Below, piece by piece: positions 12,351-44,090 of a stretch of DNA of 64,000 nt; the stretch's first letter is position 1, and the number at the start of each line of letters is the position of its first letter. This stretch comes from a virus. The position numbers and the translations under genes are program-made. Under the pieces are notes generated by a model. That model was not told where the DNA came from. It searched no databases and was given only the letters and a program-made list of their open reading frames with translations. The DNA lies in IMG/VR virus record IMGVR_UViG_3300032753_001573, positions 1 to 64,000 of that record; one strand, given 5' to 3'.

Positions 12351-12354
12351 ACGT

Positions 12355-16104: not shown

Positions 16105-16930
16105 TTACTGTTTTCCATTCGGGTATTCTATCATACTGATGCAGTACCGCATGTCTTACACCTTTTGAAGTACATGCATACCCGTCTACCCACGTTGGTT
16201 GAGGTTCCAAAAGGTTTGGTGCAAAATTAGCAATCTTGAGAGGATCAACCGTTGTTCCAGCTTGACAAGCCCAACCGTCTTCGCTCATAGTAAACTTTGT
16301 TATGCTCTTATAGGGTTCGTGATTTAATAGAACATTATATGCAGCTTGATCTGGATTTAGAACTTGATTACCAGTACACATATTGTAAATCACTAGCCAT
16401 AAATCTCGCATTATTTCTGGAACACCTGCTTGTACTCCGCAGTTCCATATGGGTTGATCTTTTAGTTTATCATATACCATGGGAAAGCTATTAGCTATAT
16501 TTTCGTTACCCCAAGGTTCGTCGCAGTATTTTAAACTTTCGCAACTGGCTAATATTTTAGCATCTCCCATGTTGGCAGTAAGCCAATCGCTTGGGTTAGT
16601 TTGAAACACTACATCTTTAACGTCTGTATGAATAAGATATCTATATTTGTCTAGATCCATAGTGGAAAAGAATCTATATAAGTCTGCAAATCTCTGTACA
16701 ACTATTACAAACCTATTTGGATAAAATAGCGTGCCGGTGTTAGGATCTTGATTGAACGCAAACAGTTGGAATTTTTTCTCAGCTAACTTCTTAACAGTTT
16801 CGATATCACTGTTATAGATAACCATAACCTTGTCGCCAGTAAATCCGCAATGATCTATGCTATTAACCCAATAGCGTATCTTGTCCCAATCATAATTACT
16901 GTAGCAACCTACTATCAGATCTTTTTTCAT
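16085..16930 (-). CDS. Putative GT-A glycosyltransferase
   Basis: RF, TDV.DV.FQ.NP (DxxD), N.G...G, DQA..N, HQYDR motifs. Confidence 0.65.
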   Translation of the reverse strand: MKKDLIVGCYSNYDWDKIRYWVNSIDHCGFTGDKVMVIYNSDIETVKKLAEKKFQLFAFNQDPNTGTLFYPNRFVIVVQRFADLYRFFSTMDLDKYRYLIHTDVKDVVFQTNPSDWLTANMGDAKILASCESLKYCDEPWGNENIANSFPMVYDKLKDQPIWNCGVQAGVPEIMRDLWLVIYNMCTGNQVLNPDQAAYNVLLNHEPYKSITKFTMSEDGWACQAGTTVDPLKIANFAPNLLEPQPTWVDGYACTSKGVRHAVLHQYDRIPEWKTVIETRYS

Positions 16931-28887: not shown

Positions 28888-30198
28888 ATGTCTAATACAT
28901 TCTGCCCAATTCCTTGGATATTTCATGCCGCTAGATCAAATGGAGATATGCGAGTATGCTGTCAAGCTAATATAACAGCTAACAAAGGTATCATACGTAA
29001 ACTAGATGGTACTGCATATAATGTTGGTATCGATACAGTAGATTCTTCTAGAAATGCTAAACTTATGAGAGCAATGCGCGTTAATATGTTGAACGGCGTA
29101 TGGAGTGATGAGTGCGGCAGATGTAAACAAGAAGAAAATAATGGCTTAATAAGTCGCCGTAGTTATGAGAATCAAACGTGGAATTATACTATAGAAGATG
29201 CTAAGAAAGATACTGCATTAGATGGTAGTATTGATATATTAACTGTTCCAATTACCTATTACGATCTCAGATTTGGTAATTTCTGTAACTTTAAATGCAG
29301 AATGTGCGGACCAGCTGATAGTGATTCTTGGTATGATGATCACATAAAGCTTACTGGTAAAGATACATTTGAAGATACATCTGGAGACGTTCAGATAATA
29401 GAAGTTGATGGCAAATTTGAGGCAAACGGTTTCGACTGGTACAAGAATGAAAAATTCTGGGAACATTTAGAATCAAATGTACACAGTATTAGACAGGTTT
29501 ATCTTGCCGGTGGTGAACCTATGCTGATACAGCGCCACTATAAATTTTTAGAATTATGTGTGAGCAAAGACGTAGCCAAAGACATAGTTATAGAATATAA
29601 CACCAATATGAGTACATTACCTTCTAGGGTTATTGAATTATGGAAAAATTTCAAACAGGTCAAGATAGGTGCAAGCGTTGATGGATTTGGTCCTATACAG
29701 GAATATCAAAGACACGGTGCAAAGTGGGATAAGACATTACGCAACTTGCAGATAGTTGATGATCTTCCGGTTAATATATCTGCGTGGTTGACATATACTG
29801 TAACAGCATACAACATATGGCATATGCCTGATTTTATGAAATGGAAATTAGAATTGAGCAGTTTTAAGAAGATCAATAGCTCAATTCATAGACCAATAGT
29901 AACACATCATGTAGCACATAATCCAAAAAATTTAAACATAAGAGTTTTACCTGATAGGTTTAAATTGGATATAGTTGAGAAATTTAATTCATTTGTGTCT
30001 TGGGTTAGAGATTCTAATTATGACTCGCATATTATAGAACAGGCTAAAACCATATCAAATGGCATATGCTCTTATATGAATAGTGAAAGCTATTATCAAT
30101 CACACTGGGATGATTTTTTAGATTATACATCAAAGTTAGATGCTATAAGATCAGAATCACTTGTAGCAGTTGAACCTAAATTTAAAGAGTATCTTTAA
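28888..30198 (+). CDS. Radical SAM protein with N-terminal twitch/SPASM-like Cys domain
   Basis: FCPIPW...CC...C.RC; CNFKCRMC; AGGEP; YNTN; SVDG. Confidence 0.9.
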   Translation: MSNTFCPIPWIFHAARSNGDMRVCCQANITANKGIIRKLDGTAYNVGIDTVDSSRNAKLMRAMRVNMLNGVWSDECGRCKQEENNGLISRRSYENQTWNYTIEDAKKDTALDGSIDILTVPITYYDLRFGNFCNFKCRMCGPADSDSWYDDHIKLTGKDTFEDTSGDVQIIEVDGKFEANGFDWYKNEKFWEHLESNVHSIRQVYLAGGEPMLIQRHYKFLELCVSKDVAKDIVIEYNTNMSTLPSRVIELWKNFKQVKIGASVDGFGPIQEYQRHGAKWDKTLRNLQIVDDLPVNISAWLTYTVTAYNIWHMPDFMKWKLELSSFKKINSSIHRPIVTHHVAHNPKNLNIRVLPDRFKLDIVEKFNSFVSWVRDSNYDSHIIEQAKTISNGICSYMNSESYYQSHWDDFLDYTSKLDAIRSESLVAVEPKFKEYL

Positions 30199-31049
30199 GA
30201 CCCGCTTAGATACCTCAACAAAGGCCTAATACCTACTGGTTGCCCGCCCTGTGTACGAGCTAGATGTATAGCTTTAGTTGGTAGGAGATCAAAGTCTCTA
30301 CAAATCTTATCATAATGTTCACCATACTGTTTCCAAAAATATTCTGGACCAAAGTGCTTCATAAATTTGATTCCCATGCTAACCAATGCTTGGGAATTCA
30401 TAGCAAAATCGTTCATGATCGTTACGGCGCCGTTGGGAACTTCTCTGGCAAATCGTAAACCTATTCGGTTACCTCCCATTCCACCTTTACTTAGACTAAT
30501 ACAAAATGTAGAAACAGCAGGATGGTCAAAATTGAATTCAATACCATTTGAACAACTCAACCAAGCTCCGTCAATGTGAACTGGTATTTTTAATTCATAA
30601 CATCTGTCTAGTATATTATCCATCAATGGGTGTATATCACCACAAAATGGGAACGGCATAGATATTAACAGTTCTTTGTTTGGCCACAGGTTGTTAAGAG
30701 TTGTATATTTGATGTTTGGATTCAACCTCCAATGATACTTGTAATCGTTTTCGAACGTCATAATACCATCGCGTCCGCAACGTTGATATAAATCATCTAT
30801 AAACTGTGTACATCCGTGTGTTATATCTAACCGAGGAAATGCACGATATCCGCTGAGCGTGTTCAATGTATGCTGATCTAACCATTCTAAAAATGTTTGT
30901 TTAAATTGATCCTCTAAGTCTTTGGTATGTATTGGATTTTCTTTGTAAAATGAATCATAAAACCTATTAATAGTATTGTCGTACATTGGTTGAGGTCGAT
31001 CTTGTTGCAACCATTCTTTGGTATATTGTCTATTTGGATTATCTCGCAT
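30195..31049 (-). CDS. PLP-dependent enzyme (fold type I-like)
   Basis: G.TQ, Y.YH, ISMPF, VHIDGAW (Asp), SLSKG (candidate Schiff-base Lys), RIG.R; ATG 31049 preferred. Confidence 0.65.
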   Translation of the reverse strand: MRDNPNRQYTKEWLQQDRPQPMYDNTINRFYDSFYKENPIHTKDLEDQFKQTFLEWLDQHTLNTLSGYRAFPRLDITHGCTQFIDDLYQRCGRDGIMTFENDYKYHWRLNPNIKYTTLNNLWPNKELLISMPFPFCGDIHPLMDNILDRCYELKIPVHIDGAWLSCSNGIEFNFDHPAVSTFCISLSKGGMGGNRIGLRFAREVPNGAVTIMNDFAMNSQALVSMGIKFMKHFGPEYFWKQYGEHYDKICRDFDLLPTKAIHLARTQGGQPVGIRPLLRYLSGS

Positions 31050-31098
31050 GATGCATTTTAATATGTTAAATTGAAATTTCAAACATTAAACTTATATT

Positions 31099-32283
31099 AT
31101 GGAACCTTGTATATTACCTTGGATCAATTTTGGTACAAATACATTTGGCAGGCCTAGAACTTGCGGATACAGCGAGATGAAATCATCTCGCAAATTAAAA
31201 GACGGAACTCTTTTGGATCATTGGAATGACGAGTATTTCAAAGAAGTACGTAGAGAGTTTATTAAAGGTCAATGGCCTAAAAATTGCAGACGTTGCGAAT
31301 ATGTTGAAAGTTTAAACGGTACCAGTAAGAGAATGGGAGAGAATACTTGGTACTTAAATGATAATAAACATCTTATAGCTCAAACAGCAATTGACGGATC
31401 AGTTCCTTATCCACCTTCTCACTTAGATATAAGAGTTGGTACTATATGCAATCTGAAATGCATACACTGTGGTACTGGTGCTAGCAGCAAATGGCATGAA
31501 GATAAAACCATGTTAGGGAAATATCCAAATACAGAAGATTACAAGATAGATAACAAATGGATAGAGCAAGATAGCACCATATGGGATAACATAAAGGATA
31601 GTATTGGGTTTGTCAAAAGACTTAATTTCTTAGGTGGAGAACCGTTTGCTAATAAACAGCATAATAAATTCATAAAAGATATATGTTCAACAGAACATGC
31701 GCAAAATATAACATTATCTTATGTAACAAATGGTCTATTGATTGATCAAGAAATATTAGACTGTCTGTCTAAATTTAAAACTGTTATTATTAGAGTAAGT
31801 GTTGATGCACCAAGTAAAGCTGGAGAATATTTTAGATTTCCATTGAAATGGAATAAGTTTATGGATCAATTGAATTTGTTAGACACTCATGCAAGTAAGA
31901 ACAATAATATTGATCTTGGACTTCAATGGACATGTAGTAACATAAGTATGTTCTATCTAACTAACACTTATACTCTTATGAAAAATTCTTTCCCTGATAT
32001 CAAGTTTATATTTTGCAATCACGTTGAATGGCCATTGCATATGAGTGCTCAAGTATTACCCAACGATGTTAAAAACGCTATTGCGTTAGAGATAGACAAA
32101 TACAACTGGGGAATAGATCGCGATGTAGTAATGTTTTACCTTAATCATATGTTTGAAAGAAATCTGTGGGAAGAATACGGTCATACTTTTCTCAATTATC
32201 TAGATGATTTAGACACATCTAGGAAGATCGATTGGAAGTATAGCCTTTCTGAAATGAATCTCAGTGCATATGATACAAGATAA
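31099..32283 (+). CDS. Radical SAM protein with N-terminal twitch-like domain
   Basis: PCILPW...C...CRRC; CNLKCIHC; GGEPF; TNG; SVD. Confidence 0.9.
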   Translation: MEPCILPWINFGTNTFGRPRTCGYSEMKSSRKLKDGTLLDHWNDEYFKEVRREFIKGQWPKNCRRCEYVESLNGTSKRMGENTWYLNDNKHLIAQTAIDGSVPYPPSHLDIRVGTICNLKCIHCGTGASSKWHEDKTMLGKYPNTEDYKIDNKWIEQDSTIWDNIKDSIGFVKRLNFLGGEPFANKQHNKFIKDICSTEHAQNITLSYVTNGLLIDQEILDCLSKFKTVIIRVSVDAPSKAGEYFRFPLKWNKFMDQLNLLDTHASKNNNIDLGLQWTCSNISMFYLTNTYTLMKNSFPDIKFIFCNHVEWPLHMSAQVLPNDVKNAIALEIDKYNWGIDRDVVMFYLNHMFERNLWEEYGHTFLNYLDDLDTSRKIDWKYSLSEMNLSAYDTR

Positions 32284-32301
32284 TATAGAAGGGACTGTAA
32301 T

Positions 32302-33060
32302 ATGGGCGAGCTTTTTAAAACTGACATAGATATACCAACTGATGCATTTGGTATAGGATTCAAATTATCAGGTGGTGCCGATAGTAGCATAGTATACTAT
32401 GCAGTATGCAAGGAATTGGCAAGAAGAGATCTAAAAATTCCTGTATACGTAACTACTCTAGACACTGATATAAAACTATGGTACAGTCACTACGCTAAGA
32501 AAGTTATTAATTTCACTGCAAACGAAACAGGTGTAAGTCCGGTTAATCATATTACTAATTATATATCAGGCCCATATGACGACGACAGGTATACGGATGG
32601 GCAAGACATTATGGTATATAATCTTGTTGATGATAGAAAGATAAATGTTTTGTATAGCGGACTTACACAAAATGCAAAAGTACAAGATCTATATGATGCA
32701 GCTATCGGACATCCTGATATCAAATTAAGTTCGGCGCCATTGATGGAATGGTGTATCAATGGTACTGATCCGACTAGGAATGATCATTCTAAACAAGGAT
32801 ATCGCGGTATTGACCGCAAGCATGCATCATTACCGTTTTGGGCAATATATCCGTTTTTGCATCATGATAAAAAATATGTAGCAGAACAGTATAAAGATTA
32901 TGACGTTATGGAAAAGTTGTTTCCATTAACATATAGTTGCGAGCATGAAAATTCTGAGATAAAGACCAAATTAGATATAGTTGATGGATTCCAAGAACAC
33001 GCACACTGCGGACAGTGTTGGTTTTGTATAGAACGAGTTTACGGTTTTGGAAAGCTGTAA
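32302..33060 (+). CDS. QueC-like PP-loop ATP pyrophosphatase
   Basis: LSGGADS PP-loop; PF...DK..VA..Y; T.SC...HCG.CW.C.ER Zn site. Confidence 0.75.
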   Translation: MGELFKTDIDIPTDAFGIGFKLSGGADSSIVYYAVCKELARRDLKIPVYVTTLDTDIKLWYSHYAKKVINFTANETGVSPVNHITNYISGPYDDDRYTDGQDIMVYNLVDDRKINVLYSGLTQNAKVQDLYDAAIGHPDIKLSSAPLMEWCINGTDPTRNDHSKQGYRGIDRKHASLPFWAIYPFLHHDKKYVAEQYKDYDVMEKLFPLTYSCEHENSEIKTKLDIVDGFQEHAHCGQCWFCIERVYGFGKL

Positions 33061-33061
33061 C

Positions 33062-33622
33062 ATGAAGATATGTATAACAGGCAACAACAATAGTGGCTTA
33101 GCAGGCGCATTAGCTACAATATATCCATCGGCTACATTTATTAGCAGACATACTGGATATGATCTAACAACTATTGCCGATCAAAATAGATGTGCAAGTA
33201 TAGCACTTGAACACGATGTGTTTGTTAATTGCGCTGCACTTTGGAAATTTAATCAGACTATTCTGTTAGATACAGTATATAAACTTTGTCTAGACAATAA
33301 ACATCCAATACATATTATATGTATAGGTAGTACCACTGATAGAGTTAAAAATGGCAAAGCATGGTTATACAATGCTGAGAAGAAAGCATTAAGGGATTAC
33401 TGTAATACATTAGCATTGGGAGGTGTTTGGGGTTCATCGCCTAAGATAAGCTATCTAAGCTTAGGTACGTTATCTAATAATCAGGAAAAACATCCGGATC
33501 GAAAATGTATTGATATGTCTTTAGCTGCTAACTATGTAAAATGGTTGATAGATCAGCCAAGAAATATAAACATAAATGAAATTAGTATAGATCCAATGCA
33601 GGATGGTAGATGGTATGAATGA
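33062..33622 (+). CDS. Short-chain dehydrogenase/reductase-like protein
   Basis: ITG...GLA, SR..GYD, D.FVN.A, IGS, YxxxK (YNAEK). Confidence 0.75.
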   Translation: MKICITGNNNSGLAGALATIYPSATFISRHTGYDLTTIADQNRCASIALEHDVFVNCAALWKFNQTILLDTVYKLCLDNKHPIHIICIGSTTDRVKNGKAWLYNAEKKALRDYCNTLALGGVWGSSPKISYLSLGTLSNNQEKHPDRKCIDMSLAANYVKWLIDQPRNININEISIDPMQDGRWYE

Positions 33623-33689
33623 TCAACTTAAATGGAGTCAATACGATTTCACTAAGATACCGTTTGATGATATTGTTAAATTTGGCTGA
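33615..33689 (+). pseudogene. Orphan 5' fragment duplicating the start of the radical SAM gene at 34504
   Basis: Encodes MNDQLKWSQYDFTKIPFDDIVKFG*, versus MNSNLKWSEYDFTKIPFNDIVKFGQ at 34504. Confidence 0.85.
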
Positions 33690-33718
33690 TTTTGTAATAA
33701 TATTTGTATAAATAAGGT

Positions 33719-34507
33719 ATGACATACTACATTGTTTACAAAACGACAAATTTAATTAATGGCAAACGATATATAGGTTATCATAAAACAGATAATTTAG
33801 ATGATGGATATTTAGGATCTGGATTGGTTTTATTAAATGCTATTAAAAAATACGGTAAAGAAAATTTTATTAGAGAAACACTAGGAATGTTTAGTGATAG
33901 TAAATCTGCATTAGATTACGAACGAATGTTAATTACAGAATATGTAATATATAGCGATGATTTTTACAATTTAATGCCAGGTGGTATTGGCGGAGATGCA
34001 AAAGGCGAATCATCTCGTAATTATGGTATAAAAAAATCTACAAGTCACAAAGAAAAATTGAGTTCTTTACGAAAAGGTAGATTTACTGGAGAAAATAATC
34101 CATTTTATGGAAAAAAACACACAGATGAATTAAAGAAATGGTTCAGTGAAAGACAGATAGGCGATAAAAGTCCTGTATATGACAATACATTGTATAAATT
34201 TATAAATCATAAAACGGGCGAATGTTTCGAAGGTACACAATATCAGTTTGTACACAAATTTAACCTTGATTCAGGTAATGTTAATAAATTGGTAAGAAAA
34301 GTTGTTACGTCTTATAATATGTGGACGTTAGATGGTAATAAACCTTTGAAAAAAGGTCCAAAGATTGATGAAACTATCTATACAATATATAAGGATGATG
34401 AGATATTTGCAGGAACACGACAAGAAATAGAACACATGTTAAAAACATGTATATCTAGATTTTTGTCAGGTAAAATCAAAACATGTAAAAAATGGAAACT
34501 TAAATGA
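33719..34507 (+). mobile_element. Free-standing GIY-YIG homing endonuclease with NUMOD3-like repeats
   Basis: IVY.TTN.IN.K.YIG.H......D.YLGSG...AI.KYG..NF; NPFYGKKHT; own late promoter TATAAATA 33707-14. Confidence 0.9.
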
Positions 34508-35643
34508 ATAGTAATCTTAAATGGTCTGAATATGATTTTACTAAAATACCGTTTAATGACATTGTTAAATTTGGACAAAGAAGTTTATTATATAAGGATA
34601 TTTTTTGTGTAAGTTGGATCGTCGGAAGGTATTGCAACTACAATTGCAGTTATTGTTGGCCTTATGCTAGGAGTAATACTAAAGATTATAGACCGTTTGA
34701 ACTCAATCGTATGACTATGGATGAGATTAAGCGACAGAGCAGAGAACGAGGATATAACAGTTTCCATTTCAGCTTTAGCGGCGGAGAACCAACGGTATAT
34801 CCTGATTATCTTAAACTGCTAGCACACTATTCTAACGATACTGAAAATTGCAACTACCAAAGTGTGCATATGACTAGTAACATATCACAAGGAATTCGAT
34901 GGTTTGAAAAATATGTTGATACGACAAAAGATCTTCACAGAGTATCTGTTACTGCTAGTTGGCATCGCGAACAGGGTATCAAGCAAGGTGATTTAAAAGG
35001 ACATACAGAAAAATTTGCAGACAAGTTGGTATTTCTGCAAGAGAACGATGTGCAAGTAACTATAAACACAGTAATGGTACCTGAGTGGTTTGATACTCTT
35101 TATGCAGAAGCAGAATACTTTCTCAGCAGAGGCATTAATGTTACTCTCAAACCTCAAAGCGATCCCACAGCTAGCAGAGTAGTTGAGGGATATACTGCGC
35201 AGCAACTGGCTACATTACACAACGGCATGCCGCAACGAGATTTCACTGCAGTAAAGAGCAAAGTTGTTCGTCCAAAACCTCCGGTTAGCATGCATGCTAT
35301 GAGCATTAACAATGGTGATGATGCAGCAGTGCCGCAGATTATGCAGGTAGAGTTTGAAGACGATACTGGTAAGAAATGGTACATGGATCAGGCCGAGAGA
35401 TTCAATGCGTTTGATTTCAATAATTTCAAAGGTTGGGACTGCGAAAGCGGGTATCGCAGTATTATTATCAGAGAACCAGATGGTGCTATCAAACGTAGCT
35501 ATAGCTGTCAAGATAAACCTCTTGGTTACATTGAGACTGGATTCAAATTGTTTGATAAACCGATGACATGCATAAGCGATGCATGCGTTAGTAGTGCTGA
35601 TAGTAAGATACCAAAACAGCGATCTATTTCAAGAATTTTCTAG
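34504..35643 (+). CDS. Radical SAM protein with C-terminal Cys cluster
   Basis: W..GR.CNYNCSYC; FSGGEPT; TSN; F.GW.C..G...C...C...C. Confidence 0.9.
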   Translation: MNSNLKWSEYDFTKIPFNDIVKFGQRSLLYKDIFCVSWIVGRYCNYNCSYCWPYARSNTKDYRPFELNRMTMDEIKRQSRERGYNSFHFSFSGGEPTVYPDYLKLLAHYSNDTENCNYQSVHMTSNISQGIRWFEKYVDTTKDLHRVSVTASWHREQGIKQGDLKGHTEKFADKLVFLQENDVQVTINTVMVPEWFDTLYAEAEYFLSRGINVTLKPQSDPTASRVVEGYTAQQLATLHNGMPQRDFTAVKSKVVRPKPPVSMHAMSINNGDDAAVPQIMQVEFEDDTGKKWYMDQAERFNAFDFNNFKGWDCESGYRSIIIREPDGAIKRSYSCQDKPLGYIETGFKLFDKPMTCISDACVSSADSKIPKQRSISRIF

Positions 35644-36375
35644 GAGTTGTTCAACTTCTTGCCAATTGCGAATTATTTGTTTCTTTTCATCAAGAGTTAA
35701 CATTTTTCTAGTTAGTAGCTCATTTTGCTCTAGTTCATCTACATTAAGCGCAGTGTACGATGTATCATCTAGTCCATAGGTCTTTAACACACTGGGAATC
35801 AAGTTTACACAATCAGCAACCATTGATTCGTAGTTGATAATGCCGATGCAATCGCATTCATTTATCAATCTGTATCTATATTCGTTGTAAACATTTGTGT
35901 AACCTATTTCGGTTTTCAATTCGTCTAACGATACATCAAATGGACGTAACTCTTGTTTAAGTTTGTCTACAACATCCTGTTTGGTGGTAACCCAAACATT
36001 AGTATGTCGTGCTATATACCAACTGAGATATCGTTCTAATTGGTTGCGCTTTACTTCTATCCATTTTGCACTATGGTCAGACATCCATCGATCTAAATAT
36101 GGTATTGCAGAGGGATGAAAGGAATGTTTAATCAACCTATGTCGATGAGAAAAACTATCGTACATCTGTAAACGTTGGTCAAATTTGTTGCGGTCTGTGG
36201 TAACGATACCAGTAACCTCAAACCCAACATCGTGTTGCACTAAATTTATTGCATTGTTAGATGGTTCCCACATATCGGTGAACTCTAATCCTGCTTGTCT
36301 CAGCAATCTAGTAAAGTAATAGAATGAAAAACTTGTGCCTGTTCTAGGTAATCCTACTAAATGTAGATCGGTCAT
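35629..36375 (-). CDS. Sulfotransferase-like protein (Stf0-like)
   Basis: GLPRTGTS (5'-PSB loop), EP, R.....YLSW.IA..T..W (3'-PB-like), YE. Confidence 0.65.
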   Translation of the reverse strand: MTDLHLVGLPRTGTSFSFYYFTRLLRQAGLEFTDMWEPSNNAINLVQHDVGFEVTGIVTTDRNKFDQRLQMYDSFSHRHRLIKHSFHPSAIPYLDRWMSDHSAKWIEVKRNQLERYLSWYIARHTNVWVTTKQDVVDKLKQELRPFDVSLDELKTEIGYTNVYNEYRYRLINECDCIGIINYESMVADCVNLIPSVLKTYGLDDTSYTALNVDELEQNELLTRKMLTLDEKKQIIRNWQEVEQLLENS

Positions 36376-36875
36376 GGCTGTTCTATAATGTTAGCAAATG
36401 GTATGAAATCATCAATAGGTTCGGCATATTGGACTTGAAACACATACCTATCGTGCTCGTTGTTGTACATGGCGTGCACCTTTGTGGTATTCAGTATTAC
36501 AGGCTGCACCGTATAATGGTAAGTTTCACTCACTGATGAGTTATCATCTAAGCTGTCATAATACGTGACTGGTGCAAATTTATTCAATGAAGGTAACAGT
36601 GCAATACTGAGACAACTGGTACGATTTGACGAATCGTCTATGTGACGAGCAATGTGTGTACCTGCTCTAAACAGCGTGAAGATCTAGCCAGTTGATTTGA
36701 ATGGTATGTAACTGGTCATTTCAGATGCATCGATATCACCTGCATCTGCCCATTCTAAACCGACGCGAGTACCCTTCAAGCTAACATAGGCATTGTAATT
36801 ACCTACCAATGCCTTTGATACTAGTATTTCTCTAAAGGTAGATGATATGGTTTTTTTGAATTCTAGAACATTCAT
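36372..36875 (-). pseudogene. 2OG-Fe(II) oxygenase-like gene interrupted by one in-frame TAG (36684-36686)
   Basis: The two listed ORFs are in the same frame; the intervening codons read IFTLFRAGTHIARHIDDSSNRTSCLSIALLPS, giving HID...H...R. Confidence 0.7.
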
Positions 36876-37010
36876 GTTTTTTCATCCTTTATATAGGATT
36901 TATGCAATGTAGCCGCCTATATTTGAAAGATACCGCCGCATGGCATTTCCTGCAATATTTTGCCTAACAAACATCTGATAAATTATAGTATAGTCGAGGG
37001 GAAACCATAC

Positions 37011-37577
37011 ATGAGATACGTAGAAAAGTTAGATCTAACCTTTGATATAAACGATCTGCTTCGTGGTTTAGAAACCGTGCTTGCTATATGTGACTGGCAT
37101 CCTCATCACAATCAAATTGGTCTTACACAGTCAATTGGCTCGGATGCAATCGAATCATGGTACAATGCAGCCGGAAGCTTGATTTATAAATGGAGCAACG
37201 ATCCGTTTGACAAAGACGGTGTATTAAAGAAGATTGATATAGTTAGAGCCGAATCTGATTTTTGTTATTTTGTGCGCGAGTTTTCGGATACTGTTTTTAA
37301 AGATGTTTTTGATAAGTTATCTGCGAGGTATAAGCTTGGTAGAGTTAGATTGATGAAGAGCCGACCTAAGACCTGCTTAAGCTGGCACACTGACAGTGAA
37401 AAAAGATTACATATTCCAATAATTACCAATCTCGGTGCAAGACTGGTGATAGAAGATACTGCTAATCATCTCATTGCCGACGGTAGCGTTTACATAGCAG
37501 ATACTACCAAATATCACACTGCATTTAATTCTGGCATGGAAGACAGGATACATCTAGTAGCCTGTTTATTAGATTAA
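37011..37577 (+). CDS. Asp/Asn beta-hydroxylase-like 2OG-Fe(II) oxygenase
   Basis: RVRLM...P..CLSWH.D...RLHIPI.TN, HTA.N....RIHLV; GAGGGG RBS. Confidence 0.8.
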   Translation: MRYVEKLDLTFDINDLLRGLETVLAICDWHPHHNQIGLTQSIGSDAIESWYNAAGSLIYKWSNDPFDKDGVLKKIDIVRAESDFCYFVREFSDTVFKDVFDKLSARYKLGRVRLMKSRPKTCLSWHTDSEKRLHIPIITNLGARLVIEDTANHLIADGSVYIADTTKYHTAFNSGMEDRIHLVACLLD

Positions 37578-38624
37578 TCTTTTTGGTTTACTGCACCATT
37601 TGATGCATGCCTTGTTAGCAGTAGTGCATTTTTGTATGGATGTTTCTAATCCATCTTTGAACCATGGGGTAGATAAGATGGTTCCTAGCGGATGTTTGAA
37701 TACATTTATATCGCCCGACGATCTAAGATTTTGTATGCGTCTTACATTTTCGTCTAGGTCTGGATTGCCGTGATCGGCTTCAGTTTGAATCCAACAGCAC
37801 GGCCAAACATTGCCCTTGTAATCCATCTGTAGTCTTGCCTGATCGGCTGCTGCGCAGGATATTTGATGCGTGTCGTCTGAATAGATCAGATCTTCAAGTT
37901 TGAAATTTCGAATCTTTCGAGTTTCTGGTAGATATGATCTCAGCTGCAAATCGGTCTGGTGTAATTCGTGTTTGATACCTTTGCGATCTGTGTACCTGTA
38001 CACATCATTGCGTTCTTGAAAGAATCTCGCAGATTCTATAACATCCCAATGATCGGCACCGTGAGCTTTTGTGAGCTCCTTGATCTCATCTAAATACGGT
38101 TGATTATGTTCAAAAACAACAGTTAGTACTCCAACGGTATTAGCACATGCGTCTGATAGAGCTTTCATGTTAGCAAGTATCTTCTTGAGACTGGTGTTCC
38201 TCCGATACCTAGCATGCATTTCTTGGTTAATACCGTCTACGTCAAATTGAGTGTGCGTGTTTTTCCCGCCTATCAATCCAAGCTGTCTCCACCATTCTGT
38301 GGTCCGTGTAGATCCGTTGGTTGTTATCTTTATGATTGTTGACGGAGAACTTTCTCTGACATATCTAACTATTTCTAACAGATCTTTGCAGGTCGTTGGT
38401 TCACCATATAATCCTGAGAATATTATCTGATTCATGTGCTGCAAGTCTTCGGGTGAGAATGCTTGCTTGAAATCATTCAGCGACCACTTCTTGCGCTCTA
38501 GAAAATCGTAGGTATCTAATGTGCCTGGCTTAAATCTGTCGCATTGTGGGCAAGCAGCATTGCACACAGAGCTAAGCTCTACTAAGACTTTCAGTTTGTT
38601 AGAATTGTATAAGTCTAACCACAT
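37569..38624 (-). CDS. Radical SAM protein with C-terminal SPASM/twitch domain
   Basis: CNAACPQC; G..GEP; TNG; DG; C...G.VWPCC...C...C. Confidence 0.9.
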   Translation of the reverse strand: MWLDLYNSNKLKVLVELSSVCNAACPQCDRFKPGTLDTYDFLERKKWSLNDFKQAFSPEDLQHMNQIIFSGLYGEPTTCKDLLEIVRYVRESSPSTIIKITTNGSTRTTEWWRQLGLIGGKNTHTQFDVDGINQEMHARYRRNTSLKKILANMKALSDACANTVGVLTVVFEHNQPYLDEIKELTKAHGADHWDVIESARFFQERNDVYRYTDRKGIKHELHQTDLQLRSYLPETRKIRNFKLEDLIYSDDTHQISCAAADQARLQMDYKGNVWPCCWIQTEADHGNPDLDENVRRIQNLRSSGDINVFKHPLGTILSTPWFKDGLETSIQKCTTANKACIKWCSKPKRLI

Positions 38625-39622
38625 TATAACACTATGGTTCCTTTGAGTATATCAACATCTCTGGCCATTTGAGCCAATAGATTAGCCCTATGAGATAAAC
38701 CCTCCGGTATGATGCCCTTGTGTAATAAGCTATTGTTTACAAAATAGTATTTGCCCGGCGTAAGAACGTATCTACCTTTTTCAAAATCCATTACCACTGG
38801 GTCGATGGGAACCATGAGTCTGAATCCGTGCATTACTGGTGTTGCATGATCCTTGTGCCAGATTGTTTCCCACCCGTTCCGGCTAATCACATAGTTGTGC
38901 CTGAATACTTTAGATTCAAGCTGTCCATATACAAACTTTGCATATTCTGGGACGCTTGGGTCAATATCTGCAGTTCCTTGTATGTTAAGCGGATGGCTGG
39001 CATATTTCTCAGTAGTAAACCCTACATGCTTTAGATAGTTGATGACTTCTGCTGCGGGTACCAAAAATTTCTGAAACCTGTCAGACACATAGTGAGGTCG
39101 CTCGCTGCCTACCCAATCGTCTAGTTCTTTCCTTAAACGTTCTGGATCTATTGGATCTATAGCTAGCTCTACTACGCAACCATACATTTCTGGAGTTTCG
39201 CCGTAATGATGTTCTACTGGTAGTGTTTCGTAGGTATCCATGGGTAGTATGTTGTGTGTCATTGCTATCTGATCAATTTCTTGATAGCGTTTGGCTATGT
39301 CGTACATATACATGCCATTTGATAATTCAATTAGATGCTGTTTGTAAACAACATCGTCATTGGATAGTGGCATGCTCATAACAACTTTGCTGATCTTTAG
39401 ATCAATAGCTTTGCCTATCATCCGATACAGTGCACCAAATTCTGCATAGAAATCATTGTTTGTGAAATCATGCACGATGTAATCTGCGATATACGTGTCG
39501 CCGTTGGCTTTGCCAGCAACTAAATGTTTGCCTGTGGTATCTACAACAACCGCATCAGATGACGACAGATCAATATCAATTGATATCGTTGGATCGGTTG
39601 GCAGTGTTAGCATGGTTTTCAT
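38624..39622 (-). CDS. 2OG-Fe(II) oxygenase-like protein with N-terminal extension
   Basis: WHKDH....HGFR..VP, Y.VN...LH, R.NL; ATG 39622 overlaps the upstream stop (ATGA). Confidence 0.6.
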   Translation of the reverse strand: MKTMLTLPTDPTISIDIDLSSSDAVVVDTTGKHLVAGKANGDTYIADYIVHDFTNNDFYAEFGALYRMIGKAIDLKISKVVMSMPLSNDDVVYKQHLIELSNGMYMYDIAKRYQEIDQIAMTHNILPMDTYETLPVEHHYGETPEMYGCVVELAIDPIDPERLRKELDDWVGSERPHYVSDRFQKFLVPAAEVINYLKHVGFTTEKYASHPLNIQGTADIDPSVPEYAKFVYGQLESKVFRHNYVISRNGWETIWHKDHATPVMHGFRLMVPIDPVVMDFEKGRYVLTPGKYYFVNNSLLHKGIIPEGLSHRANLLAQMARDVDILKGTIVL

Positions 39623-39828
39623 TGTTTTGTGATTCCCCATTTGATTCTTAACCATATGCGTTCGTGTATGTAATAATCAAGGCTTAGAAACACATGCAGC
39701 AGTGTTGCAAATCCGGTAGCACTGCCGATGTCCCCTGTGAAAAGGTAAGTCAACGGCAGCGTTAATAACCACGCAGTTAGCCTGTAACTTATCATTCTCG
39801 TTATAGTGCGAGTATGTGTTTCTTTCAT
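39619..39828 (-). CDS. DUF2061-like small membrane protein
   Basis: ET..RT.....SYR, YYIHERIW..I.WG. Confidence 0.75.
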   Translation of the reverse strand: MKETHTRTITRMISYRLTAWLLTLPLTYLFTGDIGSATGFATLLHVFLSLDYYIHERIWLRIKWGITKQ

Positions 39829-40445
39829 AGGATTAACTGCGATGGTTCGAATTTGGTAGCAGAAAATGGATAATAGAAGAAATCTTGCGGTACATCATTG
39901 AATTGATGTTGTCCCATATGCTGTAAATCGTCCCAGTGTTTAAGCTTTGATCTAACATGGCTTATTCTTCGAGTAGTATGATTTAATACCATTGCCTTGA
40001 GTTTAGACGAGTGAGCATATATTGTAAAGAATAAACCTTTGCATCTCGTAGCTTTGGCAAACATGATATGTCGGTCAAAGAATCCTTGGTCGACGTATAC
40101 TATTCCGTTATATTTGCTGCGATATGCTTTGAGTATGTAATAGAACATATTTACTCTGAGAAACTTATTTCCTGCAGTGTCGTCGTACACCTTTGCCCCG
40201 CCCATGCTTACTACTTTACCATCCTCGAGCGCAACTTCTATGGCATCAAATCCTACATCAAACCATTTACGGTTTGAATACTTGTATGCATCCTCACTGT
40301 AATTGGTTATCCACCAATTGTGATTTTCTGTAACTGACAGTAATTCTGTGTCAATGCTTAGATCATCTCTGTAGATAGATTTTCTAAATTCAGCAAGGCG
40401 CTGGTCTGTTGGATCGTATATGGTGGTTAGCTCAAAATCTTGCAT
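39825..40445 (-). CDS. Putative GNAT-fold acyltransferase
   Basis: V.M.G, LR...FYYIL..YR, F.T pattern; weak. Confidence 0.4.
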   Translation of the reverse strand: MQDFELTTIYDPTDQRLAEFRKSIYRDDLSIDTELLSVTENHNWWITNYSEDAYKYSNRKWFDVGFDAIEVALEDGKVVSMGGAKVYDDTAGNKFLRVNMFYYILKAYRSKYNGIVYVDQGFFDRHIMFAKATRCKGLFFTIYAHSSKLKAMVLNHTTRRISHVRSKLKHWDDLQHMGQHQFNDVPQDFFYYPFSATKFEPSQLIL

Positions 40446-41068
40446 TATGATAATGATGCTACCATATCATCAAATCTCAGCATCGAATCCCAGGATACCG
40501 ACACTCGACGATAATTGTCTGGATGGCCAATTTCAGCTTCCCAGGCATTGTGCAGTGATGAAACTCTAAATATTATTGGACGATTGCCGCTAATTATTTC
40601 TGCTGGTGTGGTATCTAACGGACAGCTGTAACGTTTCTTATCTACCGGGTCGCCTAGAGCAACTCCTAGCTTTAGAGGTTTGATCTCTATTATCTGGTCG
40701 GGTGTTGGTTCAAAGAATGCGGTACCGGCATAGTCGCTATAATAGATCGGGAAGAACAGATTGCTGTCTACGCTTTCGTGATCGTGTGGCAGATTTAGGT
40801 ATGTGTGCCTGCCCTTGTATTCGAGAAATGTCATGCGCTTGTCTAGATTATATTTCGCTCTGAATTCTTCCATCTCTGGAAACAACGCACTGACCTCGTC
40901 AAACGTGCTGTCTCTTAAGAACAGTGCTTCTTTGACAGGCCTATATTTTGGTATCAATTTGATATGATCATAAACATTGCGCAGATAGTCTGACATCATT
41001 ACGATGTCTGGCACATGCTCTGTTGAATAGAAATATTTGCCGCTCTTGCCAGTTTTGTCCATGATCAT
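40445..41068 (-). CDS. Cupin/2OG-Fe(II) oxygenase-like protein
   Basis: PHDH...SNL.FPI; P.IFR....H.A; RR.S.S. Confidence 0.55.
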   Translation of the reverse strand: MIMDKTGKSGKYFYSTEHVPDIVMMSDYLRNVYDHIKLIPKYRPVKEALFLRDSTFDEVSALFPEMEEFRAKYNLDKRMTFLEYKGRHTYLNLPHDHESVDSNLFFPIYYSDYAGTAFFEPTPDQIIEIKPLKLGVALGDPVDKKRYSCPLDTTPAEIISGNRPIIFRVSSLHNAWEAEIGHPDNYRRVSVSWDSMLRFDDMVASLS

Positions 41069-41078
41069 TATATTCCTG

Positions 41079-41672
41079 TCAATCTACGTCTATGTAACCC
41101 ATATTATGTAAGATAACACAGGATTCTTCCCAGCTGGCCTCAGACATCTCCCACTTGATGATGGTACGAGTCTCACCTTTGGGCATGTTATTGAACCCCT
41201 TATGTATGATATCACTGCGGAACAAGCAAGGCATACCAGTGCTGGTGAGCATGGCTTCGGTATGGATCGGCTCTAGATCCTCGACGTTTTCTACTAGATA
41301 GCTGTCCTTGTAGAGATCATTCTTGAATCTAACTTCTGTCTTGCAAGTATACCAGGTGCTAGGACTGTGTGCTTCGCAGTTGAGGATGGGCCAGTTGATG
41401 CTGGCTGCTCCACCGCTACCAGGTGTACCTTGTATATGCGGGGGAAATTCTCTGGCAAGGCGGTTGGTATTGAGGACAAAGAAGTGTTCACGCAATGACG
41501 GTATCTGCTTGCGCAGTTCTACGGCAAAATCATAATGCGATACTTGGCATCTATAGTTAAGACCAAACTTGTAGGTATCGTCTCTGCGTCTTGCTTCTTT
41601 TTGTATATCATCCCACTGCTGGAAGCTTAGCAACGGCTTCTTAAAGTTTATGATGTATTTGTTTTCGAACAT
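41079..41672 (-). CDS. Cupin/2OG-Fe(II) oxygenase-like protein
   Basis: PPHIQG...SINWPI.N; P.LFR.D..H...N....R. Confidence 0.55.
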   Translation of the reverse strand: MFENKYIINFKKPLLSFQQWDDIQKEARRRDDTYKFGLNYRCQVSHYDFAVELRKQIPSLREHFFVLNTNRLAREFPPHIQGTPGSGGAASINWPILNCEAHSPSTWYTCKTEVRFKNDLYKDSYLVENVEDLEPIHTEAMLTSTGMPCLFRSDIIHKGFNNMPKGETRTIIKWEMSEASWEESCVILHNMGYIDVD

Positions 41673-41727
41673 TGCGATAGAACTTTCTGCTATGAATGTT
41701 ATATGATAACGGTTCGTCCAAAAACTA

Positions 41728-42450
41728 TCAATAAAGATGTTCTATGGGCGCTTGGCTATCTATGCTTATGATGAGATGATTTCGTGGAGTGCTGCCACCG
41801 TTTATCGCATAGTGTTTGACACCCGGATTTACAAACCACACTGACCCATCGGCGGGAATGTGATGCTTGACTTCATTACCATCCTTGTCCCAGCCACCGT
41901 TGAAGCATTCTTCGTTGGTATCAAAGGCGATATGAAGCCTAACTCCGTAAAGAGTGTCATAATCGATGTGTGGTTTGACTTCCGAATGAGGAGCAAGGTT
42001 AGCAAATCTAGCACGATGAGATCCAGGAAATGCTGCTAAAACCTCTCTTAGATATGGCGGAACATCTTGTTTAACTTTGCGAAACCAACGTTCGTCTGCT
42101 TCCGTTTTGCCTTTGGCTATCCTGTTGTCCCAGGCACTGCCCGATTTTTCAGTTCTTTTATCTAGGCTGAACGAGTTGTCGTACTCTGTTAGACTTAGCT
42201 GTTGATAACTGGTATGTTCCCAGTCGAGCTCGCAAACATGATTGATACCAGCAAGCTCCTCATCCTTGAAGAACATTGCAGGCAACTTGGTATGAGCTTC
42301 GCACATATCGGCATAATCGGAACCTAATCCGTCCCAGACTTTCCCTCTTTCAAACTGTGATAATTCTTCTCTAAGTCTATCGATGTTAAATCTGATATTA
42401 AGTGGAGCAATGACGGGTAACTCGTATCGTCTTTTCCATGTTGTAGACAT
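41728..42450 (-). CDS. Asp/Asn beta-hydroxylase-like 2OG-Fe(II) oxygenase
   Basis: R.RFA.L.P.....PHIDYD....R.HI, HIPADG.VWF.N.G..H...N.G...R.HL; GGAGG RBS. Confidence 0.85.
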   Translation of the reverse strand: MSTTWKRRYELPVIAPLNIRFNIDRLREELSQFERGKVWDGLGSDYADMCEAHTKLPAMFFKDEELAGINHVCELDWEHTSYQQLSLTEYDNSFSLDKRTEKSGSAWDNRIAKGKTEADERWFRKVKQDVPPYLREVLAAFPGSHRARFANLAPHSEVKPHIDYDTLYGVRLHIAFDTNEECFNGGWDKDGNEVKHHIPADGSVWFVNPGVKHYAINGGSTPRNHLIISIDSQAPIEHLY

Positions 42451-42543
42451 TTTAACCTCCAGTAAACTTCTTGTACACTATTTAAAGATCTGCTCCATAG
42501 ATGAGGTTTCAAATAAGATTTTTCCATAAGCTCAAATATGATA

Positions 42544-43293
42544 TTACTTGCTTAATATTCTAATAAAAAAATAAGAAATGTCAAATTGCCACCAGCGATC
42601 TCCACCAAAATTTGGACTTAGAGGTTTGTGATGGTGATTGTCGTGCCATCCTTCTCCCCACACCAAATATGCTAATGGTGCATTATTGCGGGCATCATAC
42701 TCGTGGCCATTGTCATTATTGCCATACATATGTGCAAATGTAACTATACTAGATCCTGCATTCCATAAAACGGCAGCCGGTACTAACCATGCATATATAA
42801 CTGCCATTGGATCTATCATATATAGAATTGCAGCATATACAAAGTTAATTAAGAAATAGTATTTATGCTGCCATTTCATAAATGGATCTCGTAGAAGATC
42901 TCCAACGTAACGTATGTTAACTTTTGAAAACATACTCAAATAGTGGGCATAAAACCAACCCTTATGCTTAGGACTATGTGGGTCTCTATCAGAATCTACG
43001 TATCTGTGATGTTCTCGATGAATAGCAACCCAAGGTATAGCTGCTCCCGTTAATCCTATGGTAGCACAAAGCGTACCTATGTATCTAAACCATTTTGGTG
43101 CTGGCCATGAATCATGACTAAGAAGTTTATGATATGTCATAGTCATTCCAATACATCCATTTAGGAAATATACAAATAATACTATGCACCATTGCCACCA
43201 ATGACCTACAACTATCAATACTAACACGCTGATATGTGCAATGATTTGTAGTGCTAATAGCAACCATTTGTCTGGTATATACTTAGAAAACAT
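42544..43293 (-). CDS. Membrane fatty-acid (delta-9-type) desaturase
   Basis: Three His boxes (HKLLSH, HREHH..D...DPHSP, GEGWH.NHH); transmembrane segments. Confidence 0.92.
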   Translation of the reverse strand: MFSKYIPDKWLLLALQIIAHISVLVLIVVGHWWQWCIVLFVYFLNGCIGMTMTYHKLLSHDSWPAPKWFRYIGTLCATIGLTGAAIPWVAIHREHHRYVDSDRDPHSPKHKGWFYAHYLSMFSKVNIRYVGDLLRDPFMKWQHKYYFLINFVYAAILYMIDPMAVIYAWLVPAAVLWNAGSSIVTFAHMYGNNDNGHEYDARNNAPLAYLVWGEGWHDNHHHKPLSPNFGGDRWWQFDISYFFIRILSK

Positions 43294-43409: not shown

Positions 43410-44090
43410 ATGGCAACAAATTTACCAACCAATGGTTCAAGCAGCGCTGGTACACTAAGTAAATTTGGTGTTCCAATAACGTCTGGCGCTTCTCAAGGTT
43501 CTGGCATATTGATGCCAAAGTTGAAGTATCGTTATGCTGTTTACCTACAGAATTTTGGAGATGGGCAGGGTGTTACGCAACAGAACATAACACAACAGGT
43601 TGTGAGCTGCGGACGTCCTCAAGTCCAGTATAACAGGACTGAACTACACAGCTATAATAACGTGATGTTTATCCCACAGAAACCAGTATGGCAGACGCTT
43701 GAATTGGTTGTGCGCGATGATATTACTAGCGTTTCAACTCAGTCAGTTGGTGAGCAACTACAGAAGCAGATGAATTATTTCAATATGACTACTGGTATGG
43801 CTGGTATCAATTACAAGTTTACCATGCAGATACTCATGCTAGATGGTAATTATGGTGCAACTGATTCAACTAATGCAGCATTAGAAACATGGCATATAGA
43901 GGGTTGCTATCTAGAAACTGTAGCTTATGATAATAATGATTATAGTTCAAGCGACCCTGTACAGATAACACTAACTATAAGCTTTGATAACGCTACACAG
44001 GTTATTAATCCACCTTCTCAGAGCAGTACTGGTACTGACGATCCAGGTAATCTTGCTGGTGTGCTTGCTGGTGGTGATGGTTCTTATTAA
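43410..44090 (+). CDS. gp19: Tail tube protein (T4 gp19-like)
   Basis: LMPKL.YR..V, RP, W......RDD, YKF, E.W...GC, I.L.I..DNA; late promoter 43373-80. Confidence 0.85.
   Translation: MATNLPTNGSSSAGTLSKFGVPITSGASQGSGILMPKLKYRYAVYLQNFGDGQGVTQQNITQQVVSCGRPQVQYNRTELHSYNNVMFIPQKPVWQTLELVVRDDITSVSTQSVGEQLQKQMNYFNMTTGMAGINYKFTMQILMLDGNYGATDSTNAALETWHIEGCYLETVAYDNNDYSSSDPVQITLTISFDNATQVINPPSQSSTGTDDPGNLAGVLAGGDGSY

Follow-up and report, generated by a model that had tools for sequence, protein, structure and literature searches.

The enzyme island at positions 28888-43293 of the window, the window being the first 64 kb of the 155,688-base IMG/VR contig IMGVR_UViG_3300032753_001573, is real, its genes are functional, and it represents a conserved, mobile tailoring cassette. 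It is best explained as one horizontally mobile unit, made of two joined modules, that occupies a variable slot in a jumbo phage of the Rak2/PA5oct type, with the tail sheath gene on one side and the tail tube gene on the other. Module A (28888-38624) would be a copy of a widespread, uncharacterised radical S-adenosylmethionine (rSAM) system, and module B (38624-43293) a conserved block of 2-oxoglutarate (2OG)/Fe(II) oxygenases, together with a small membrane protein and a membrane desaturase. The encoded proteins may act in the stepwise tailoring of a sugar or glycoconjugate.

An enzyme island between sheath and tube was already the reading of the initial annotation of this DNA, and 19 open reading frames (ORFs) do lie between the two structural genes. 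These features, with the bordering genes and one gene relic, are listed here by coordinates and strand (L numbers are our labels for the contigs and loci compared).

24725-28789, + strand: tail sheath gene, 1354 amino acids (aa), left border of the slot (PF17482 at 45 bits)
28888-30198, + strand: rSAM1, N-terminal-twitch rSAM enzyme (NF033640 at 365 bits, cut-off 170, and PF04055)
30195-31082, - strand: pyridoxal phosphate (PLP) aminotransferase-like protein of fold-type I, 295 aa (profile match to class I aminotransferases)
31099-32283, + strand: rSAM2, second N-terminal-twitch rSAM enzyme (NF033640 at 285 bits, cut-off 170, and PF04055)
32302-33060, + strand: PP-loop ATPase, 252 aa (SGGADS at residues 23-28; QueC-like only at the C-terminal Cys motif)
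33047-33622, + strand: short-chain dehydrogenase/reductase (SDR), 191 aa (TGNxxxG, Ser95, Tyr108-xxx-Lys112)
33615-33686, + strand: relic 24-codon copy of the rSAM3 5' end (near-identical to rSAM3 residues 1-24; 79% by tblastn)
33719-34507, + strand: GIY-YIG/NUMOD3 homing endonuclease (PF07460 and PF01541; G+C content (GC) 0.28)
34504-35643, + strand: rSAM3, the most conserved rSAM enzyme of the system (PF04055)
35629-36375, - strand: predicted sulfotransferase-fold protein, Stf0/NodH-like, 248 aa (Atlas feature score 0.96; template-modelling (TM) score 0.65-0.79)
36372-36587, - strand: small conserved protein, 71 aa (70% identical in L158)
36684-36875, - strand: small conserved protein, 63 aa (81% identical in L158)
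36960-37577, + strand: AspH1, 2OG/Fe(II) oxygenase of the Asp/Asn beta-hydroxylase family (PF05118 at 33.3 bits, cut-off 22.6)
37569-38624, - strand: rSAM4, rSAM enzyme with a C-terminal SPASM-like Cys domain (PF04055; weak matches to TIGR04317 and other SPASM families)
38624-39655, - strand: o343, protein of two domains with a 2OG/Fe(II) oxygenase as its C-terminal half, according to its fold model and Foldseek
39619-39828, - strand: DUF2061 small membrane protein (PF09834 at 33 bits)
39825-40445, - strand: o206, family unassigned (orthologues 59-99% identical)
40445-41068, - strand: o207, possibly oxygenase-like (Atlas: viral hypothetical-protein clusters)
41079-41672, - strand: o197, probable oxygenase fold with an HxQ...H variant metal site (orthologues 87-95% identical)
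41728-42450, - strand: AspH2, second AspH-family oxygenase (PF05118 at 35.4 bits, cut-off 22.6)
42544-43293, - strand: membrane fatty-acid desaturase, 249 aa (three His boxes, HKLLSH, HREHH and HDNHH)
43410-44090, + strand: tail tube gene, right border of the slot (phrog_4542, E 6e-46)

Conservation of the island as a single unit

The island genes form one conserved unit. The single concerted pathway put forward in the initial annotation survives this comparison, since 13-15 of the gene families recur in conserved order in two genomic contexts and no fewer than four other contigs, and the genes are intact and under purifying selection. In L158, a 69.6-kb contig from a related jumbo phage whose sheath, tube and second tube genes are 63%, 55% and 44% identical to those of the window, the island occupies the same sheath-tube slot. 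The orthologues running from rSAM3 through AspH2 are 70-92% identical there, above the flanking structural genes; they include rSAM3 (86%), AspH1 (77%), rSAM4 (89%), o343 (82%), DUF2061 (85%), o206 (82%), o207 (82%), o197 (92%) and AspH2 (85%). The PLP protein (62%), the SDR (56%), rSAM1 (55%) and the desaturase (46%) complete the set, and L158 carries no endonuclease, PP-loop or sulfotransferase gene.

The same families, in nearly the same order, are found in a 131-kb contig (L155/L156) in a different context, with MoxR-AAA/DUF2201 genes on one side and an Mtd_N tail-fibre-like gene on the other. The block consisting of AspH, three genes of about 200 aa, DUF2061, o343 and rSAM occurs again in two more contigs, which also hold an opposite-strand AspH gene, a desaturase gene and rSAM arrays. 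A further relative is represented by L154 and L057, which belong to one metagenome: the tube and desaturase proteins of L154 are 56% and 45% identical to those of the window, and the rSAM1 of L057 is 73% identical over the portion present. The six-gene block from o343 to AspH2 is 93% identical at the DNA level between the window and L154, with pN/pS values of 0.05-0.17, which indicate strong purifying selection and thus a maintained function. Synonymous divergence climbs from 0.02 to 0.70 across this block, a gradient that points to recent recombination.

Tight packing of the genes had also been part of the initial annotation, and both kinds of overlap are present: convergent genes overlap at 30195-30198, 35629-35643 and 37569-37577, and ATGA-type or 1-nt overlaps couple stops to starts at 34504, 36372, 38624, 39825 and 40445. 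Promoter and terminator scans gave a signal at chance level and so did not delimit transcription units.

The contents of the slot could instead be a heap of unrelated accessory genes collected in a permissive place, with no shared pathway. Such a heap would suit the variation of the slot among relatives, the difference in GC between the island halves (0.347 versus 0.42), the insertion of a homing endonuclease, and the lack of PP-loop and sulfotransferase genes in L158. However, this explanation is largely refuted by the conserved synteny just described, and the frequent stop/start overlaps, the purifying selection and the o206/o343-like fusion presented below further count against it, so that we consider it very improbable.

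The sheath-tube slot and its phage

CheckV estimates the completeness of the contig at 36%, from which a genome of about 430 kb would follow. In the Pseudomonas PA5oct group the tail tube proteins share 45-47% identity with that of the window, compared with 40-44% for Agrobacterium phage Atu_ph07 and Sinorhizobium phage Phosso; the kinship to the PA5oct group places the virus among Rak2/PA5oct-type jumbo phages rather than among T4 relatives in the narrow sense. The sheath orthologues of L158 and L057 are 63-66% identical to that of the window. This sheath (24725-28789) is about twice the size of that of T4, as is also apparent from its L158 relative of 1363 aa, and the known sheath families match only its last ~250 residues, so the remainder may consist of decoration domains.

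The gap between sheath and tube holds only a homing endonuclease in PA5oct, and four unrelated genes in Atu_ph07, namely a 1.7-kb gene whose annotation reads 'RNA-binding protein' and three hypothetical ORFs of small size. These contents identify the sheath-tube junction as a variable slot in the lineage. When the island was compared with 50,697 phage records by megablast, no match was obtained, and a protein search returned nothing but distant rSAM matches in three cultured phages. The left half of the island has a GC of 0.347, the lowest among all 7.5-kb stretches of the contig (versus 0.406), which fits a separate and later origin of this half.

The radical SAM module and its partner enzymes

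All four rSAM proteins that the initial annotation had recognised, with their auxiliary cysteines, score above the PF04055 cut-off (43-50 bits versus 29.5), and the CX3CX2C motif is present in each translation. Both rSAM1 and rSAM2 are full-length members of NF033640. In rSAM1, four N-terminal cysteines (Cys6, 24, 76 and 79) precede the CX3CX2C motif (133-140) and are invariant in 15 aligned sequences; its viral orthologues are 46-66% identical in most of 62 loci and 33-35% in the most distant ones, and the identity of its bacterial orthologues reaches 57%. rSAM3, present in 45 viral loci and in 49 of 73 bacterial ones with 54-65% identity, matches no NCBIfam model above the cut-off of that model and, with only 35 bits against NF033640, is not a member of that family. 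It bears a weak resemblance to viperin and MoaA. Viral and bacterial sequences are intermixed in the rSAM3 tree, where the window and L158 form a branch of their own, and no donor can be named. rSAM4, which likewise falls outside NF033640, always comes directly after the o343 gene.

The PLP enzyme of the initial annotation is borne out by its A3 profile, which matches 3if2 (E 4e-4) across the PLP Asp/Lys region, and by the invariant D171, K199 and R206, which stand in register with 3if2, 3ftb and 3g7q. The protein is about 100 residues below the usual length of family members, so its activity is not assured. A chromosomal homologue from Bdellovibrionales, 48% identical, adjoins an N-twitch rSAM gene, and in 10 of 21 cases the PLP gene has such a gene next to it.

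The SDR was also correctly recognised, its catalytic Ser, Tyr and Lys being kept: TGNxxxG, S95 and Y108-xxx-K112 are invariant across 20 sequences. Its profile matches SDRs of the PDB at E 2e-3, and no Pfam model reaches E 0.01 with it. The family comprises more than 1480 metagenomic protein clusters, and rSAM genes are the usual neighbours of the SDR and PP-loop genes.

For the sulfotransferase proposed initially, structural comparison supports a predicted fold, the TM scores given above being those to Atlas sulfotransferase clusters, and an N-terminal PRTGTS loop resembles the 5'-phosphosulfate loop; no match was found in Pfam, NCBIfam or PDB sequence/profile searches. The 231-aa gene at the corresponding position in L155 is not its counterpart.

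As for the PP-loop ATPase, the SGGADS motif upholds the first half of its initial description as a QueC-like PP-loop enzyme, but the likeness to QueC (PF06508) amounts to 18.7 bits, below the cut-off of 22, and covers only the C-terminal 53 positions. A local profile of 61 paralogues matches the protein at E 7e-40, and paralogues are found in 34 viral and nine bacterial loci, usually between rSAM genes. The ATPase nevertheless raises the question of nucleic-acid hypermodification, in which a QueC-like enzyme and the rSAM enzymes would make a modified base, deazaguanine or other, for the DNA of the phage or for tRNA. The QueC-type C-terminal Cys motif, a QueD/PTPS-like gene 80 kb away (contig positions 115106-115489) and the weak likeness of rSAM3 to viperin and MoaA, which act on nucleotides, are all compatible with this idea. 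Against it, the QueC match is below its cut-off, no TGT/DpdA, FolE or QueE is found in the 155-kb contig (36% of the genome), a fifth rSAM gene at 123.5 kb is of the SPASM type and not QueE, several PP-loop paralogues occur per array, interleaved with rSAM genes, and the bacterial homologues reside in glycan clusters. We thus regard hypermodification as having only a slight chance of being correct. A 7-deazaguanine pathway was set aside on the QueC score and the lack of TGT, FolE and QueE on the contig.

Insertion of a homing endonuclease

One gene of this module is not an enzyme of the pathway. The ORF at 33719-34507, overlooked in the initial annotation, is a selfish insert outside the pathway, and it is absent from L158 and L155. 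It is located exactly where the SDR stop formerly overlapped the rSAM3 start. The relic at 33615-33686 was left by the insertion of the endonuclease at the rSAM3 start; several amino-acid differences are seen in this relic N-terminus, and the intact rSAM3 restarts at the endonuclease stop, within an ATGA.

The wider radical SAM system in viruses and Bdellovibrionota

Relatives of rSAM1 are present in 62 IMG/VR loci, most of which also contain the SDR (50-68%) and rSAM3 (56-65%). These viral loci are tandem arrays of up to about ten rSAM paralogues plus PP-loop paralogues, in which genes for B12-rSAM, nitroreductase, GNAT and AspH proteins are found as well; one array contig carries a T4-type Gp23. 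A fixed triplet encoding a glycosyltransferase (GT)-like protein, a methyltransferase-like protein and a highly conserved 74-aa helical protein occurs in L005 (1452-4297) and in about 30 other viral loci. Neither the GT-like gene nor the 74-aa gene of this triplet was found on the 155-kb window contig. Outside the window, the contig has the QueD/PTPS-like gene already mentioned, a fifth, SPASM-type rSAM gene split into ORFs of 209 and 119 aa (123520-124490), and a homologue of the cassette's methyltransferase-like protein (131709-132305, E 1e-24); these may be a second, partial rSAM locus.

When prokaryotes were scanned with a single genome for each species, 73 genome loci with N-twitch rSAM genes were obtained, nearly all in Bdellovibrionota and several on Mb-size chromosomes. 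They include an isolate, Bdellovibrio sp. HCB2-146 (loci L129/L136), which carries the core of the system. This minimal bacterial core consists of a protein of about 230 aa with GT-A-like motifs (no PDB sequence/profile match), an N-twitch rSAM, a SPASM rSAM and rSAM3, and its four genes recur in at least five distinct chromosomal neighbourhoods. The three rSAM members are present in the island of the window, and the GT-A-like protein and the GT2 that accompanies it were not found in the 155 kb available (CheckV 36%). A literature search on Bdellovibrio with radical SAM and glycosyltransferase, or on the N-terminal twitch, returned nothing relevant.

The neighbouring genes were annotated in four bacterial loci (L130, L136, L105 and L120), and they place the core in a glycan-gene context. 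L136 has six GT2 genes and L130 one GT2 with a Glyco_transf_7C domain, and L105 combines four GT2 genes with a PMT_2 GT-C transferase and a gene of the flavin amine-oxidase family.

Pairs of genes encoding a MoxR-type AAA protein and a DUF2201/DUF58 (VWA-like) protein lie beside rSAM arrays in L155 (1-2234), L120 (5762-8070) and a 174-kb contig, in phage and bacterial rSAM loci alike. Such pairs may serve as a cofactor-insertion chaperone or may be a coincidence.

Among cultured viruses, Ralstonia phage RsoM2USA (L162, MG752970.1 215949-224212) has genes for a GT-like protein, an N-twitch rSAM, another GT-like protein and a methyltransferase-like protein, all annotated as hypothetical, some 4 kb downstream of a homologue of the tube gene (32% identical); the GT-like and N-twitch genes next to the tube gene lie at L162 4818-8557. 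In Vibrio phage K566 a single operon holds three rSAM genes (L161 6890-11292). Together with the isolated Bdellovibrio strain, these phages provide culturable handles on the system.

The oxygenase-desaturase module

The initial annotation had counted about six 2OG-Fe(II)/cupin oxygenases. Three of them are solid (AspH1, AspH2 and o343), one is probable (o197) and one is a lead (o207). In AspH1 and AspH2, the HxD...H triad and the 2OG-binding Arg are invariant in the A5 alignment, and relatives of AspH1, itself encoded within module A, occur in viral and bacterial rSAM loci.

The model of o343 reached a pLDDT (predicted local distance difference test) of 91 when 21 homologues were supplied, versus 34 from the single sequence. 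With this predicted model, Foldseek matched 7v4m/7v4f, AspH, proline hydroxylases and AlkB, with E values down to 5e-7 and a probability of 1.0. Residues H267, D269, H312 and R323 are invariant, and the true start of the protein lies probably near 39622. A local AspH profile failed to detect o343, o197 and o207. Comparison of o197 with the PDB, by sequence or profile, yielded no match; hhalign gave it a weak hit to AspH (probability 8%), yet one aligned on the motif, and a paralogue in L155 carries HxD. The assignment of o197 to the oxygenase fold is probable. The nearest named Atlas clusters of o207 are 2OG-FeII_Oxy_3 and AspH at 0.89, a lead only, and its comparison with AspH by hhalign was negative.

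The GNAT-like call for o206 has to be withdrawn, as this protein has no match, acetyltransferase or other, in Pfam, PHROG, NCBIfam or PDB profile searches. A 398-aa ORF in L030 (19895-21091) fuses an o206-like N-terminal part to an o343-like oxygenase domain, and this fusion suggests that o206 and o343 of the window act together. The DUF2061 protein passes PF09834, as the initial annotation implied, and its gene is retained beside that of o343 in four other contigs. Equally, the desaturase keeps its three His boxes and, even though it scores 51 bits against the DesA family, under the equivalog cut-off, the genes at the same position in L155 and L158 match PF00487.

A distant o343 homologue (39%, 423 aa) adjoins a classical SDR in L157 (10001-13262). 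This contig looks bacterial, EF-G/LepA and SufBCD genes being among the neighbours, and the homologue may point to the cellular source of the oxygenase block.

This module brings lipids into consideration. The desaturase and an LpxO-like AspH would act on acyl chains, and the rSAM enzymes and their partners on a glycolipid of the host, at its head group or its core sugars, in a remodelling of envelope lipid or of lipid A/lipopolysaccharide (LPS) that would block superinfection or keep the progeny from sticking to debris. The membrane desaturase and the DUF2061 membrane protein are indeed conserved in the cassette, AspH2 has a faint match (E 0.006) to LpxO, a lipid A hydroxylase of the AspH family, a PMT_2/ArnT-like GT-C transferase is found in bacterial locus L105, and the GmhA encoded elsewhere in the window suggests LPS-core heptose. 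However, the LpxO match reaches 15.6 bits where the cut-off is 500, no LpxO-type membrane anchor is apparent in the AspH proteins of the window (as judged by eye from their sequences), conservation within the cassette is lowest for the desaturase (45-46%), whose gene shifts position between relatives, and no acyltransferase or lipid A gene is among the annotated genes of the bacterial core loci. We consider lipid remodelling rather unlikely; it would overlap with the tailoring of a glycoconjugate if the target were a glycolipid.

The same oxygenases, together with the SPASM/twitch rSAM enzymes, could modify a protein or peptide instead, cross-linking, epimerising or hydroxylating a virion protein (sheath, tube or fibre) or a peptide resembling RiPPs (peptides made by the ribosome and modified after translation). 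AspH enzymes hydroxylate Asp/Asn in proteins, o343 resembles both AspH and proline hydroxylases, many of the weak NCBIfam matches of rSAM2, rSAM3 and rSAM4 are peptide maturases, and the cassette sits between structural genes and includes small conserved ORFs of 63 and 71 aa. Yet no peptide-maturase match comes close to its cut-off, and the usual marks of a RiPP cluster are missing: there is no PqqD/RRE domain on the 155-kb contig, the two small proteins are not rich in Cys, Ser or Thr and do not look like leader and core, and no protease or exporter/transporter gene is adjacent in the island or in the annotated core loci. In addition, the bacterial context is one of glycosyltransferases, and the same cassette occurs in phages in which the neighbouring genes are unrelated. 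Protein or peptide modification is therefore a doubtful proposition.

Proposed function of the island

Of the targets that the initial annotation had left open (protein, glycan, nucleic acid, lipid), a sugar or glycoconjugate is the one to which the evidence now points, and nucleic acid is disfavoured. We give the stepwise tailoring of a sugar or glycoconjugate about an even chance. It is favoured because the bacterial core is found among GT2 genes (with a GT-C in one locus), because GmhA homologues lie near it in three further loci, and because the phage has a heptose/glycosyltransferase operon of its own. This operon (11373-16930) encodes a GT4, GmhA (SIS domain), a GHMP (HddA-like) kinase, Mannosyl_trans3, a GT2_4 and an unknown 281-aa protein, the genes from GT4 to GT2 spanning 11373-16104; it adjoins genes for a CCA-type nucleotidyltransferase, gp15 and a lysin. 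Homologues of its GmhA (12355-12960), 39% identical, are located inside three Bdellovibrionota rSAM loci. Moreover, the sulfotransferase-fold protein resembles the carbohydrate sulfotransferases Stf0 and NodH, and pelagimyophage rSAM cassettes lie in a host-recognition cluster with glycosyltransferases (PMC7029224).

From these contexts we infer both the nature of the substrate and the chemistry of every step. The rSAM enzymes would abstract hydrogen from unactivated C-H bonds of a sugar, present as a nucleotide sugar, an assembled glycan or a glycolipid, to give keto, epimerised or deoxy intermediates, and each would be paired with a finishing enzyme. The PLP enzyme would fix such intermediates by transamination and the SDR by reduction, whereas the PP-loop ATPase may adenylate and amidate a carboxylate, the predicted sulfotransferase would sulfate, and the oxygenases would add hydroxyls. 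The oxygenase-desaturase block may act on the same product, if this is a glycolipid, or run a parallel branch. Since the island holds no transferase, the acceptor would probably be made elsewhere, for example by the heptose/glycosyltransferase operon; the initial annotation had likewise observed that no scaffold synthase is present within the island, and we agree. There are precedents for the rSAM-PLP and rSAM-SDR gene pairings. The twitch rSAM enzymes BtrN, HygY and AprD4 oxidise, epimerise or dehydrate sugars or cyclitols, the partner of BtrN being the aminotransferase BtrS, and that of AprD4 the reductase AprD3.

Several points weigh against this assignment. To our knowledge, neither NF033640 nor the rSAM3 family includes a protein of tested function. 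Neither the island nor the 155 kb in hand contains the GT-A-like core protein and the GT2 usual elsewhere, and no nucleotidyltransferase is encoded in the island. AspH-family enzymes are best known to act on proteins and, in the case of LpxO, on lipid A, desaturases act on acyl chains and not on sugars, and SPASM/twitch enzymes are most often peptide maturases. In the bacteria, GT2 genes flank the core in three of the four annotated loci, L120 having only the GT-A-like core protein, and the scanned representatives of further recurrent clusters are mostly without a family. Finally, the link to the heptose operon consists of a proximity of 12 kb and of the co-occurrence of GmhA in three bacterial loci only.

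A more specific version of glycan tailoring, tentative and on the unlikely side although less so than lipid remodelling, would see in the cassette a self-contained kit for the serial radical and oxygenase editing of an already assembled glycan, glycolipid or glycoprotein, either on the virion tail or on the surface of the infected cell. The sugar produced would then be of an undescribed kind, with heavy oxidation, amination, amidation and sulfation, phages would swap the cassette whole to alter their surface identity, and the N-twitch rSAM enzymes would represent a new class of post-assembly glycan editors common to phages and predatory bacteria.

Whatever its target, this enzyme system is abundant in large aquatic phages and predatory Bdellovibrionota, and no reaction is known for it. 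Surface glycans govern adsorption, host range and superinfection immunity, and if the editing of sugars were to hold, radical chemistry would join the means by which viruses and predators shape them.

Comparison with known systems

The island had been presented initially as an undescribed system. rSAM cassettes of large marine phages are in fact on record, with no function given: many rSAM genes were reported in a T4-like marine genome (Nishimura 2017, PMC5332604), and rSAM cassettes in a pelagimyophage host-recognition cluster (Zaragoza-Solas 2020, PMC7029224). The island has orthologues of rSAM1, rSAM3, the SDR and the PP-loop protein (up to 68%) in common with the arrays of the 62 IMG/VR contigs. 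The published cassettes are located in the tail-fibre/host-recognition region, whereas the island is set between the sheath and tube genes, counts no more than four rSAM genes, lacks GT-like genes and is joined to an oxygenase/desaturase block. With respect to protein families, rSAM1 and rSAM2 are well above the cut-off of NF033640 (N_Twi_rSAM), a family that is itself computational and has no known reaction.

The closest cellular counterparts, the rSAM-glycosyltransferase clusters of Bdellovibrionota, share with the island rSAM3 (54-65%) and PLP, SDR, PP-loop and AspH partners. In their annotated loci GT2 genes surround the core, joined by a GT-C gene in L105, and o343, DUF2061, o206, o207 and o197 are lacking.

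The butirosin pair BtrN and BtrS, the apramycin pair AprD4 and AprD3, and HygY resemble the island in having an auxiliary-cluster rSAM enzyme beside an aminotransferase or an SDR, a type of pairing that installs amino groups and removes or epimerises hydroxyls on sugars. There is no detectable kinship beyond the rSAM core, the twitch is N-terminal in the island enzymes and C-terminal in these, and the island has no aminoglycoside scaffold genes. As for human AspH and LpxO, both AspH1 and AspH2 pass PF05118 and keep HxD...H and Arg, and the C-terminal domain of o343 has the same predicted fold and triad; contrary to them, the island enzymes have neither a TPR domain nor a membrane anchor, and in o197 a Gln replaces the metal-binding Asp.

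Known phage systems for the modification of surface glycans, such as O-antigen seroconversion and the LPS/GT genes of cyanomyophages and pelagimyophages, are likewise accessory cassettes with sugar genes in a structural region, although they use transferases and acetylases, and none has rSAM arrays and 2OG oxygenases. New features of the island are its place in the sheath-tube slot, the low number of rSAM genes, the lack of any transferase, the close linkage with the o343/DUF2061/AspH/desaturase block, its recombination, and its invasion by an endonuclease. To the systems known so far, it adds that an rSAM module can operate with no transferase of its own, that such a module can be genetically tied to a conserved oxygenase-desaturase block, and that the unit travels as a whole from phage to phage and from one genomic slot to another.

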